NCBI GenBank assembly: GCA_951406725.2 | Contig: OX597824.1 | Span: forward strand, 97,836,001-97,900,000 | Reading direction: 5' to 3' | Source: Octopus vulgaris | Taxonomy: Eukaryota | DNA length: 64,000 nucleotides | Part shown: positions 17,201 through 50,160 of the stretch, piece by piece | How positions within the stretch are numbered: position 1 is the first letter of the stretch | How the letters are laid out: each line of letters opens with the position of its first letter | The notes under the pieces: generated by a model | Told to the model about the DNA's origin: nothing | The model's database searches: none | What the model saw: the letters and a program-made list of their open reading frames with translations, nothing else | Position numbers and translations under genes: made by a program

Positions 17201-19516
17201 AAAGCCGCACCCGAACGTTCCATTTCGAAGGCGAAGGACGTTGGTTAAATCAGAAACCACAGATGTTAGAGACAGGGGTGTTTAGTTTCAGTTTTATACA
17301 TCTGGGAAAGTGCAGACGGTGTCGTTAAGCCATGAGAATACGATAATCCGTGTCGATAATCCCTGATCGAGTCCTTACAATGCAGCGGAATAAATTCTGC
17401 TAAAATTCCATCATTAACCAGGAAGTGGTACTAAACCAGGTGCTAGGATGAGCATACCAAACCCCATCTCCCTACCTTCGCCAAAAAGATTGTATAATAT
17501 ATTCCTAATTATAACTGGAACGGTAATCAGCGCAACGTCTCTTATCCCTGCATGAGTGAAGTTGACCTGAGGTTAACAAGGACAGCAAAAATAATTACGA
17601 GAAACTCTTGTGGAAGAATTTCCTGAAATATGTGGAAAGAGACGGTGTGACAATTATTATTTCTTGGTGCCAAAACAAGATAACTCCAGCCATAATTCCT
17701 CATTAAAAGCTAAGTCGTATGGCTAACAGTTGTCTGAGAGGAAACAGAAGGGTCTGTAATGATCCGACTCGGTCAGCGATCCAGTTTTTCACTTCCGGTC
17801 GAAGAAACTTCTTTTTATATTTACTTCTTACACTACGAAACCAAAACAAAACAAATAAAATAAATATAAAATATACAGAAAAGCATGAACATCCTCACAG
17901 CTTCCCTGTAAACCTTGAGTCATTTAGATTTGGATTATCTGGATGAACGACCAACGAATTAATATCTCTCCGTGATGACTCGTTATGTGAATTCCTGTGA
18001 CCCACGTCGACAGAAATACGTAACAGTAATTGCTTTACAAATGCCTTCACGCCAAATTAAGACACCATTATCACAATCGCGGCTTTCGCTGTGATTATCA
18101 TTCTCATTATCGTTGTTGTTGTTGTTGTTATTAGTATTATTACTATTATTATTATTATTATTATTATTATTATTATTATTATTGCATGTCTTCCTGTGTG
18201 CGATGGTAGATTAATTACATTGTTGCAGAAATTGTTAATTGTATCCCAATTTAATTTTTATGATCGCAATGTTGTCATCATTTTGTAAGTTTGTCTTGGA
18301 GGTGAAATGGGGCGGTGGGAGGCGGTGGTGATGGTGAGGGATGTGAGGGTGGCGGTGGCAGCGGTGTTGTCAGCTTGGGGAATTAGGGTATTAGCGATGT
18401 GAGGTAGAGGTAGGGGAGACGAAGGGTAAGGGTATAGATAATGAAGGCTGGTGAAAGGCTTAACATGGTGGCGGCGGCGGCGGTGGTGGTGGTTATATCA
18501 GAGAATGAATTGTTAATGGTGGTAGTTGTATAGAAATGAAGGTAATTGTGAAGGATGCGGTAGTGGTGGTGGTGATGTTGGGTTAGGAGGTGTCTATGGT
18601 GTGATAGTTAAAAGTGATGTTTCGTTGCTGCTGCTGTTGTTGTTGTTGCTTAACTACAGGCCAGACTCGGTCAAGTAGACCGTTGTTCAAAGACATTTCC
18701 AGTCGTGACCATCCCGTATTAGAAGTGAAATGTTGATGGGGAATATGGCGGGAATTCATATAAGTTTGTTCAATGTTATATATTATGGTGATCATCGATT
18801 TATGTAGGTAAATGTGGTTTGAGATTGAATGGAACTCAATGAGCAAACGTGGCTATCTATGAGAAAGAGAGAGAGAGAGAGAGAAAGAAAGAGAGGGAAA
18901 GAAAGTGAGAAAGTGAGAAAGAGACAGAGACTTATGGCGGTTGTATCTTATTGGTTTTAGGGTTTCCAGGCCCAAGTTGAGTGTTAGATACACATCTAAC
19001 ATTATCAACTGCCTTGAGGTAACTAAGTCGATATAAAAGGAATTAGGACAATCAACGTGATCTCCCTTGTTTGTATCTGGTCAGCAACTCTCCACAGATT
19101 TTCAGGCGCCAACATCAGTCACAAACCGAATCTCTGTTGAATCCTTTCAACACTTACATCAGCCACATTAGCAGACTTACCATTTATCCCCCCACCACCA
19201 CCCCTCTAATTTCATCGCCTCTCATAACATCACAATCCGTCCATCAGAACCTTGACCTTTGTTTTGGAAGGAAGAATGTCTACAATTCATCCTCTCATGG
19301 GTCACTTTCGAAGTGATGACTTGGATGGTCAACAGCTCTAGATCGTCCAAAGAATATCTGATAAGATTCAGTGTCACTCAGAGTTGACCATGTGATGGGG
19401 ATCTAGGCTTCAAACACACAAAGGATTCAGTTCTATATTTAAGAGATGAGGAATTTATGTACATTATTTACATTATTTACATTTGACGAGTATTTGTCCT
19501 CATCTTGTTTGTTGTT

Positions 19517-19562
19517 AACACAAAGTTTCGGCTGATATAGCCTCCAGCCTTCTTCAGGTGTC
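19517..19562 (-). ncRNA. Hammerhead-like motif (family A, mirror copy, stem III mutated)
   Basis: GACAC-CTGAAGA-A-GGCTG...CAGCC-GAAACTT-T-GTGTT. Confidence 0.6.
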
Positions 19563-19757
19563 TTGGGGAAATTTCGAACCCGGCAAAAAATCACTACGCC
19601 ATATACCGACGAGCATATGGAGTAGTAGTTAAGAGCGCGGACTACTAACCCCAAAATTCCGAGTTCTATTCCAGGCAGTGACCTGGATAATAACAACAAC
19701 AACAACAATATCGAAAAATGCCCTAGGAATGAGAACCCAGGTTCGAAATTTCCCCAC

Positions 19758-19803
19758 GACACCTGATGAAGGCTGGAGGCTATATCAGCCGAAACGTTGT
19801 GCT
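19758..19803 (+). ncRNA. Minimal type-I hammerhead ribozyme-like motif (family A)
   Basis: GACAC-CTGATGA-A-GGCTG(10-nt loop)CAGCC-GAAACGT-T-GTGCT. Canonical core, palindromic ACGT stem III, partial stem I. Confidence 0.75.
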
Positions 19804-19865
19804 AACAACAAACAAGATGAGGACAAATATCCGTCAAATGTAAATAATGTAAATAATGTACCCAA

Positions 19866-20360
19866 ATGATTGTTCCGAACATTGTTTTGAGGTTTCTCTT
19901 CTCGAGTTGTTTGGAGATGTTCGATGCCTATATACTCTTCATATCATCGAGAGTTTTCAAGGCAAACCCTTCAAGCTCTTTCATGTCCCTCACTGAATCC
20001 ATTGTGAAGATATTTCAAACTGTTGAAGTCAAAGAACTCTTAATCTCTTAAGATGAATAAGCTGAATGCTTCAACGTCTTGTGGTCAATTACATTATAGA
20101 AAATGTATTCCGTTTTCTTAGCAGTGGGGTGTATACTGACTTTGTTGCACTCGGTTTCGACTCTTGACAGAGTCTTGAGCATCTGTGGTTTCATACAACA
20201 AAGTATTGACGTCGACAAAGGGAATGTCAATCAATGCTACTTAAGCAAGACTCTTTGATGTTTTTGGTGTCGTAGCGAAGCACAACTCTTCAACTCCATC
20301 TGTTCGCCTGGACAGGGCGGAGTTCAGAACTCTGACGAAGATGGAAAGTGATAAAGCTGC
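19866..20360 (-). mobile_element. Degenerate non-LTR (RTE-like) reverse transcriptase fragment
   Basis: Peptide LSRVETECNKVSIHPTAKKTEYIFYN resembles the post-YADD motif L..VE.E...VGL.LN.KKTEYM. Many frame disruptions. Confidence 0.5.
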
Positions 20361-48386: not shown

Positions 48387-48679
48387 TTTTAATCACACAC
48401 ATGTTTCGATGCATGTGGGGATATACACATAAATGTAGATGTGTATTTATGTTCATATATGTATATATCTATGTATATATATATAAGTGTATATGTGTGT
48501 GTGTGTGTATGTGTGTGTGTGTATGTGTGTGTGTGTGTGTGTGTGTGTGTGTGTGTGTGTGTGTGTGTGTGAACACTGGAAACACAAATCGTTATATGCA
48601 GTAAAACACACACACACGCATAAAGCAGAATCGGCGTTGCTACAAATTTTTCTGTCTTCTACTACAGTGAATATATATT

Positions 48680-48910
48680 TATTTCTTTATTGCCCAGAGG
48701 GGGCCAAACTTAGAGGGGCCAAACAAGGACAGGCATAGGGATTAAGTCGACTACATTGTACCCAGTGAGTAACTGGTACTTATTTAATCGACTCCAAAAG
48801 AATGAAAGGCAAAGTCGACCTCGGCGAAATTTGAACTCAGAACGTAGCGACAGACGAAATGCCGCTAAGCATTTCGCCCGGCGTCCTAACGATTCTGCCA
48901 GCTCGCCGCC
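48680..48910 (-). mobile_element. Nin/Deu-like SINE
   Basis: Reverse-complement match to 29113-29337. Confidence 0.85.
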
Positions 48911-49054
48911 CTAGAGCGAATATATACTATACTATACATCGATATTATATATTATACTATACATATATACTATATATTGATATTGATTCTGTACGGCCCG
49001 AGTTTCGCGATCACAGATCGCTGTTAACTGTGATCCTAGCTTCTTATATACACA

Positions 49055-49215
49055 ATGGACTTCTTTCACTTTCTGTCTCCCAAATGCACCCAGAAGGCAT
49101 TGGTTGGCCCGAGGCTATAGTAGAAAACACTCATCCAAGGCACCACGCAGTGGGATTGAACCTGGAAACATGTGGCTGAGAGAGAAACTTCTTACCCCAC
49201 AGCCACGCCTGCGCC
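49055..49215 (-). mobile_element. SINE 5' part
   Basis: Matches 44505-44675. Confidence 0.75.
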
Positions 49216-50004
49216 AACAATTATTATCTTCTGCAGACAGAACTATGTTTGCAGTAGCACCACCACCACCCACCCCTGACCACCACCACCAAATAAACAA
49301 GCAGGTATTTTGCAGTCATCTGTCGAAAACATTACGACACGTTGCAAATGAAGGAACAACTTGTAAGAGAGAGAAACTTCTTCGGCAAAACGAAGAGAGA
49401 AACCGTTTTGGCATTCTTTCTAACTTCTAAAACGAAACTCTGCAAAGGGATTTCTTTCCACCAAAATAAATATCAATTTTTAAGACAACAAATAGAAACA
49501 TTTCTTCGCGCAAAGCATTTTGATGGGGAATGCGGTGGTGGTGGTGGTGGTTGGGGGGAGGGGAACACGAAAAGAAAGTGAAACATTCATAAGATGTTCG
49601 CCACGCAACTTATGCGGTTCTAGGTTCAATTCCCACAGCCCTGCGCATAGCGGGGAGTGAGTGCCTTTCACTGCAGCACCCAGCACCCTGCTGAGCAATT
49701 TCATTGAGAAATTTCGTAGAGGGTACTGCACATTCTCTCTCTCCCCCTTCCTGTCCCCTCTCTCTCTCCTTCTCTCTCTCTCTCTCTCTCTCTCTCTCTC
49801 TTTCTCTTACTCCCTTTATATATATATATATATATATATATATATATATATATATATATATATTTTGTAAAAAATGAAGTTTGAAAATGCTGCTTCACTT
49901 CATTTTTTACAAATATATACCCACTCGTATACGAGCTAATCTTATTATAAATAAATATATATATATATATATATATATATATATATATATATATATATAT
50001 ATAT

Positions 50005-50160
50005 CTCTCCCTGTTTATTTCTGTGTTCCTTTCTGTTGAAGAGCGTAGGCTCGAAACGTAAAAGACTTTCTCACTTCCCGAGCGTTAAACTAATACATCT
50101 GTTTGTTGTCTACACACCCGTTCTTCGTCTTTTTCTTTTTTTTTTTTTGTAAATTCGCTC
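50005..50160 (+). mobile_element. Short (TA)n-embedded PLE-like element, family B, hammerhead-like motif at 50029-50064
   Basis: CTTT-CTGTTGA-A-GAGC-GTAG-GCTC-GAAACGT-A-AAAG. Confidence 0.78.

Follow-up and report, generated by a model that had tools for sequence, protein, structure and literature searches.

Minimal hammerhead motifs in a region of the Octopus vulgaris genome: truncated ends of Penelope-like elements and a non-coding family likely copied by Penelope-type enzymes

The region considered here is a stretch of 64,000 nucleotides (nt) of Octopus vulgaris contig OX597824.1 (assembly GCA_951406725.2, forward-strand positions 97,836,001 to 97,900,000; hereafter the window), which is rich in microsatellites and belongs to a genome of 2.80 Gb in 227 contigs. 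It holds nine short stretches in six families (A to F), which an initial annotation took for a dense population of sequence-unrelated, non-autonomous elements sharing a minimal hammerhead ribozyme and related to Penelope-like elements (PLEs) or retrozymes. All nine lie where that annotation placed them (Table 1). The motifs are real and the link to PLEs is right, yet the population consists mostly of ordinary truncated PLE ends, and the short inserts are not one system of unrelated non-autonomous elements. The reading that we consider probable is that B, C, D, and E are the 5'-truncated rear ends of four coding PLE families carrying a minimal hammerhead motif, that F is the rear end of a long interspersed nuclear element (LINE), and that A, a non-coding element headed by a tRNA-like part, was likely copied by Penelope-type enzymes.

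Table 1. Positions of the six families and their parts within the window
Feature	Position	Strand	Description
Family A insertion	19428..19862	.	non-coding element present as an inverted pair, with the left arm in reverse and the right arm running head-to-tail
A left arm	19428..19583	-	5'-truncated tail with extra ~30-nt extension; hammerhead 19517-19562, stem III mutated
A head	19601..19686	+	5' hairpin, A-box-like and B-box-like motifs ~34 nt apart (tRNA-like); both boxes mutated in window copy
A spacer	19687..19709	+	internal (AAT/AAC)n
A right arm tail	19710..19862	+	without extension; minimal hammerhead 19758-19803, predicted cut after 19798
Target-duplication-like 9-mer	19419..19427	+	8/9 identical to 19863-19871
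Family B copy 1	21676..21828	+	probable Neptune-type PLE 3' end ahead of (TA)n; U6-core hammerhead variant at 21701-21736
Family B copy 2	50004..50150	+	hammerhead variant 50029-50064
Family C	28686..28800	-	probable Hydra-type PLE 3' end in (TA)n; hammerhead 28718-28755, G5 mutated in window copy
Family D left arm (short end)	30421..30535	-	hammerhead 30458-30519
Family D right arm (long end)	30545..30725	+	probable young Hydra-type PLE 3' end; hammerhead 30561-30622
Family E	41775..41957	-	probable Neptune-type PLE 3' end in (TA)n; hammerhead 41870-41904
Family F	43440..43552	+	flanked by (TACA)n tracts; probable terminal module at the 3' end of a restriction-like-endonuclease LINE; likely no hammerhead

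For each family, 30 loci were sampled out of 40–58 matches. Every family is a dispersed repeat whose listed copies have fixed 3' ends and ragged 5' ends, and the family divergences (0.016–0.054) were computed on the best-scoring copies and hence understate age. Hammerheads were sought with a descriptor that demands the core, stems I and II, GAAA, a self-complementary stem III, and NUH, and 60 block-wise dinucleotide shuffles served as controls (100 for a stricter variant). The motifs occur above chance: the strict descriptor gave 5 matches (both B copies, both D arms, and E) against a mean of 0.17 (maximum 1) in the shuffles, and the stricter variant 5 against 0.04. A relaxed form gave 7 against 0.62 (maximum 4), adding the plus-strand A motif and an unrelated match at 38590. 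The minus-strand A arm (stem III mutated), the window copy of C (G5 mutated), and F are missed by the descriptor.

Stem pairing is kept between families while the stem sequences differ. The common core architecture stands in canonical form for A, D, and E, which show the features of minimal type-I hammerheads (viz. CYGANGA and GAAA cores, stems I and II, a palindromic stem III, and NUH), and is departed from by B, with U at position 6 in nearly all copies, by C, whose family-majority core is canonical, unlike that of the window copy, and whose stem II is merely 2–3 bp, and by F, whose majority has A at position 5. The description of the families as unrelated in sequence fails: the alignment of B with E covers 58 nt at 74% (E 9e-5), and a 12-nt block of GAAA/stem III is common to C and D, whose open reading frames (ORFs) are also homologous. 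The microsatellite context was confirmed at the 3' ends, with (TA)n in 16 of 30 B, 29 of 30 C, 28 of 30 D, and 21 of 30 E loci and (TACA)n in 20 of 30 F loci; the 3' end of A lies outside a microsatellite in 28 of 30. Rfam, which the initial annotation had named as a check, returned no hammerhead at the gathering score, nor at E <= 10 on two A copies, and among the 150 of 566 Rfam matches listed for the window all are microsatellite or palindrome noise. This silence is uninformative for minimal motifs, because Rfam also missed a tandem hammerhead array elsewhere in the genome (L190, see below). One Rfam family, mir-9 at 30498-30582, exceeds its gathering score on either strand, but this is owed solely to the nearly perfect palindrome that the D insertion forms, and it was rejected as a false microRNA call. 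A sequence search of the PDB gave no match.

The evidence that best accounts for families B to E comes from their longer copies, which lead upstream into frames for a PLE reverse transcriptase (RT) and a GIY-YIG endonuclease, as the initial annotation had suggested might be found. For D, a frame comprising RT, linker, and GIY-YIG parts is present upstream in loci L091 and L097, with 95% identity over 2 kb. The D frames show DKT, CxCX5C linker, CxxC, and CxH motifs, the target is (TA)n, the unit measures ~2.6 kb as judged from copy spacing, and the RT aligns (E 5e-6) to a 781-amino acid (aa) PLE protein with Pfam RVT_1 and GIY-YIG matches. A homologous frame in L183, 36.5% identical to the endonuclease part of D (E 6e-29), is continuous with C. 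A feature search led to clusters with GIY-YIG on 37% of members, which serves as a lead only. For B, 8 of 40 matches to the upstream ORF end were examined; 7 of these have B 600–900 nt downstream of where the ORF ends, and 6 of the 8 have GIY-YIG-domain matches. For E, a PLE frame in L285 that is 54% identical to the B protein (E 6e-41) is followed by a CA-rich region of ~1.7 kb partly common to L286; several of 20 extended copies (out of 72) share this region, and one of the two that were extended further reaches the PLE frame. In B to E, the 3' ends are fixed, the 5' ends are ragged, and ORFs lie upstream, and the proposal that these are non-autonomous retrozyme-like units gives way to one of 5'-truncated copies of protein-coding PLE families. 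Inverted partners were seen in C (13 entries) and in D, where an extension occurs on one arm in 19 of 19 pairs (that this is the right arm is set by the query used); none was present among 30 E loci, and three B entries scored as inverted pairs were rejected as (TA)n artefacts. Two further D-related 3' fragments, truncated downstream of the hammerhead, lie in the window at 41077-41145 (-) and 44383-44466 (-).

Published work on PLEs suggests how these ends would arise: the GIY-YIG endonuclease would nick (TA)n, and reverse transcription would begin at a constant point immediately beyond the 3' side of the hammerhead and mostly halt early. Most B to E copies would retain only the last 100–200 bases because reverse transcription usually stops early, and the hammerhead would be over-represented because it is located at the end copied first. 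Most single genomic hammerhead motifs are likely inactive passengers. B to E are new members of a published kind, as the available text of an earlier survey describes minimal hammerheads by the thousand per animal genome, heterogeneous and for the most part single, with low activity in vitro and a probable origin in truncated PLEs (PMC4209133). The PLE pseudo-long terminal repeat (pLTR) hammerheads described there are likewise minimal type-I motifs with an extra base before stem II and a palindromic stem III, and they likewise comprise many divergent families per genome, mostly single copies, with opposite-strand pairs 100–700 bp apart and a U3-A8 core variant; the U6 core of B is not mentioned in the portion available (PMC4209133). 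C and D resemble the Hydra clade of PLEs, for which the available text lists DKT, the CxCX5C linker, CxxC, CxH, a length of < 3 kb, a (TA)n target, a C-terminal GIY-YIG domain, and a hammerhead (PMC8557442); the D frames show the listed features and C is assigned by homology to D, whereas the octopus differs in having thousands of young copies, tandem arrays included. B and E resemble Neptune-type PLEs as described in the same source in their zinc-finger-like linker before a C-terminal GIY-YIG domain and their (TA)n target (PMC8557442), a label based on motif comparison that does not separate Neptune from Nematis, and they differ in their long low-complexity 3' regions of 0.6–1.7 kb.

Exact motif counts, which are lower bounds, gave 2,977 for A, 13,900 for B, 5,720 for C, 3,261 for D, and 5,468 for E, with 0 for each reversed-pattern control. 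The very large genome-wide number that had been anticipated is supported by the total of 31,326, or at least one per 89 kb, of which B, with its non-canonical core, makes up 44%. This exceeds the ~2,000 and 1,300 reported in the available text for Schistosoma, 4,000 for coelacanth, and 9,000 for Xenopus (PMC4209133), in a much larger genome and by another method. In a sample of 200 kb (20 of 60 intended 10-kb stretches, all on contigs C1–C5, with the smaller contigs outside it), seven A to E copies cover the core, or ~1 per 29 kb, which extrapolates to ~98,000 copies (95% range 39,000–202,000). The window, which was selected as rich, contains 8 A to E copies in 64 kb, ~3.6x the sample density (p = 0.014), and the proposed density of one motif per 6–7 kb is several-fold above the genome average.

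Family A is the new part of the finding and combines a tRNA-like head, (AAT)n, a minimal hammerhead, and no ORF; the tRNA-like head was overlooked by the initial annotation. The element is ~300 bp long and consists of a 5' hairpin with A-box-like and B-box-like motifs, an (AAT/AAC)n spacer, and a tail of ~190 nt whose minimal hammerhead is of textbook form. Of 30 loci selected on the tail, 13 have the head in front of it, and of 20 selected on the head, 15 have a tail in the next 400 nt; the remaining five heads run into long spacers or secondary insertions. The boxes are found at tRNA spacing near the 5' end (A box in 9 of 20 copies, B box in 11, both intact in 5). The head has 1,006 exact matches genome-wide, part of A is present in six organisms according to the sequencing-run list, from which runs X19 and X21–X23 were aligned to A, and A reads, mapped to locus L047, are abundant in three RNA-seq runs (5,900–8,000 per run out of 12–13 million records). 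None of the indexed runs listed as containing A is recorded as RNA. In L189 and L287, Dong-like LINEs are inserted in the (AAT)n spacer of A, where other short interspersed nuclear elements (SINEs) and PLE ends land too.

The manner in which A is inserted is informative regarding its mobilization. A has two 3' ends ~30 nt apart, both of which show as loose ends in independent DNA contigs (run X19); in locus L031, for example, the left end is at reference position 189 and the right end at 159. Where A forms inverted pairs, a single arm carries the tail extension in 15 of 15 pairs and in 5 of 6 further independent pairs (neither arm in the sixth), and 20 of 21 has a probability of ~1e-5 under even odds by a hand calculation. 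Half of the loci (15 of 30) have a flank duplication of >= 9 nt, compared with 6.6% of mismatched flanks, and target duplications of 9–18 bp surround the whole inverted unit, head included. The available text of a study of PLEs gives as signatures an optional 30–40-bp tail at one end and inverted partners (PMC8557442), and the tail has been traced in vitro to two internal sites of RT initiation, located 111–118 nt within the ORF, the hammerhead cut being at 26 nt (PMC11167929). The long end of A, ~93 nt beyond the predicted cut, is at a similar distance. In the same in vitro system, hammerhead cleavage needed protein and insertion did not require cleavage (PMC11167929). With no ORF, an inverted pair, a one-arm tail, and a target duplication, A shows the features of a non-autonomous PLE derivative, and it is likely a SINE riding on PLE machinery.

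A mechanism of the following kind would yield inverted pairs, an extension on one arm, and 9–18-bp target duplications: RNA polymerase III (Pol III) would transcribe A from its A and B boxes, and the pLTR-like tail would be bound by a PLE protein, which would begin copying at one or the other of two internal sites ~30 nt apart and then switch template to produce the inverted partner. The template would likely be uncleaved RNA, because a cut would remove the head. We tentatively put forward, as quite possible, that A is a Pol III-transcribed SINE partnered with a PLE and not a LINE, viz. a tRNA-promoter element that captured a PLE pLTR with its hammerhead and internal RT start sites, that reached thousands of copies in at least six related organisms, and that leaves the PLE tail signature in its insertions.

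Among known systems, A resembles the schistosome Sm-alpha and Sj-alpha elements, which in the available text have a Pol III-type promoter (predicted in A) followed by a hammerhead and no ORF (PMC6765202). Those are described as tandem units freed by cleavage (PMC6765202), whereas most A copies stand alone or as inverted pairs, and A has a hammerhead of the minimal kind, target duplications, and the one-arm tail of PLEs. A also resembles the non-LTR retrozymes, which the portions available describe as non-coding, hammerhead-bearing, and proposed to be PLE-mobilized (PMC7229834; bioRxiv 10.64898/2026.07.22.740005); these form tandem repeats with a hammerhead per unit, whereas only 2 of 30 A loci show tandem copies and A bears a tRNA-like head, and the word "tRNA" is absent from the available text of the preprint (bioRxiv 10.64898/2026.07.22.740005). 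None of A to E is a non-LTR retrozyme as defined, A by its rarity in tandem and B to E as ends of coding elements. Searches of the literature yielded no description of a tRNA-headed PLE passenger; Repbase, Dfam, SINEBase, or the supplements and repeat library of PMC13282606, with 893 recently active but unclassified SINE families, may already contain A. The word "ribozyme" is absent from the main text of the octopus repeat paper.

Several results weigh against our reading. For the coding families, Pfam gave no match for the D or C frames, the ORF link of E is supported by one locus, the one-arm tail rule holds in just 9 of 13 C entries (two pairs being counted twice), and the clade names of the PLE families come from motif comparison without a tree. 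No autonomous PLE with the tail of A appeared in 30 A loci, a screen for long frames that might partner A found none >237 aa among the 150 scored of 35,419 candidates, and 23 A copies without a spacer have no common upstream in the six bases examined per copy. A GIY-YIG survey found no A downstream in 17 loci examined of 150 scored, and a six-frame search of sampled loci also did not find a partner of A. The putative tRNA origin of the head is suggested by its box motifs; Rfam gave no tRNA match for the head, and ARAGORN made weak calls in 6 of 30 copies at a lowered threshold with inconsistent identities. The A reads in RNA-seq (unstranded) are balanced over both strands without an end pile-up, and therefore no independent A transcript is shown; ends left by self-cleavage would not be visible in fragmented RNA-seq.

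Dong-like LINEs do lie inside the A spacer in two loci, five of 20 heads have no tail within 400 nt, and a PLE partner of A was not found, all of which would suit an ordinary SINE moved by a LINE (e.g., a Dong-like element that targets (TAA)n) or a SINE head fused by chance to PLE ends that landed in its (AAT)n. Such an origin is unlikely, however: a Dong-like copy in L192 terminates in (TAA)n without A, head, spacer, and tail are joined alike in 15 of 20 loci, the target duplications enclose the entire inverted unit with its head, the 3' end of A is outside microsatellites in 28 of 30 loci, and the one-arm tail is a PLE signature. We also rejected the narrower possibility that a Dong-like LINE has A as its 3' terminus, since the LINE lies inside the spacer of A and ends without A in L192; a direct genome search aimed at this gave no candidates and is uninformative. 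For F, the proposed PLE link, which stands for A to E, does not hold, and the family belongs to a LINE. The upstream frame has a zinc knuckle and a restriction-like endonuclease motif, and F lies <=700 nt 3' of this frame, past a variable (TACA)n tract, in 26 of 30 frame-selected loci. The hammerhead-like order of its parts (core-like heptamer, hairpin, GAAA, palindrome), its separation from the 3' untranslated region of the LINE by the variable tract, and the occurrence of tandem F modules would fit a degenerate or variant hammerhead that the LINE captured from a PLE end via 3' read-through and has carried since. We regard this capture as rather doubtful and F as likely not a working hammerhead, contrary to its initial listing, for core position 5 is A in 1,246 copies genome-wide and the canonical G in 24, which is the level expected under random change among 1,270 counted copies; therefore, the source element would have been without G5. 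Moreover, stem I does not close beside the core, and the minimum-energy fold is predicted to be a different 9-bp hairpin.

That the motifs are chance matches in repetitive, AT-rich DNA might be argued from the absence of Rfam hammerheads and from the up to 4 matches that the relaxed descriptor gives in shuffles. This has next to no probability and is already refuted for A to E, in view of the 5 matches against 0.04–0.17 in shuffles, stem sequences that vary while pairing persists, the location of each motif at the same place in a PLE end, and the presence of the motif in further PLE families. A population of unrelated non-autonomous retrozyme-like elements, each spreading by its own self-cleaving RNA at one per 6–7 kb, would account for motifs above chance in tens of thousands of copies, for the non-coding nature of A with its tandem copies in 2 of 30 loci, and for the true tandem retrozyme-like array at L190. 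We hold it to be very unlikely, as B to E lead upstream into PLE frames and F into a LINE, B is related to E and C to D, and the sample gives one copy per 29 kb; the upstream ORFs largely refute it. The truncated-PLE reading of B to E, with F as a LINE end and A as a likely PLE passenger, is the one that we prefer.

The LINE that hosts F is presumably of the Dong/R4-type clade. Its C-terminal zinc knuckle and PD-(D/E)xK-type motif, microsatellite target, and 5' truncation are like those of Dong/R4-type LINEs, from which it differs by its short terminal module after an internal (TACA)n tract; Dong-R4 elements are active according to the available text of the octopus repeat annotation (PMC13282606). 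A decayed fragment of another restriction-like-endonuclease LINE (E 7e-8) is present in the window at 39232-39438. Further hammerhead-bearing elements were encountered elsewhere in the genome. At L190:2272-4548 (G000:C1, near 20.00 Mb), tandem units of ~359 nt each carry a type-I hammerhead whose stem I has 6 bp; five of the units lie on one strand and two on the opposite strand, and the array looks like a non-LTR retrozyme with an inverted part. L240:445-2787 contains an intact 781-aa RT/GIY-YIG PLE frame, related copies of which end in a U3-A8 variant hammerhead. This family is likely recent, because many of 150 scored GIY-YIG matches lie in 781-aa open frames, and its extreme 3' end is present in the window as a short inverted fragment in (TA)n at 49863-49915 (25 nt, 96%, E 7e-9). 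The 17 GIY-YIG loci examined of the 150 scored reveal at least two more PLE families with minimal hammerhead ends of their own, one of them the U3-A8 variant. The flanks of nine loci (viz. L003, L049, L088, L126, L142, L166, L181, L191, and L244) contain other distinct minimal hammerheads with different palindromic stem III sequences; the genome therefore has more families than A to E.

The bulk of the finding is a known phenomenon in a further genome, explained by 5' truncation, and its wider significance lies with family A. Recent work has argued from phylogeny and co-occurrence that PLEs mobilize hammerhead-bearing non-coding repeats, and A gives insertion-level evidence, in thousands of copies, for such mobilization. 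Inverted A pairs inside host transcripts would fold into long double-stranded RNA. A is also a natural minimal substrate, of ~190 nt, for a PLE reverse transcriptase, and it bears on the question of why the hammerhead is kept though cleavage is dispensable in vitro, for here a cut would part the promoter from the template. If its transcription by Pol III is true, A extends the partnerships of SINEs from LINEs to PLEs.

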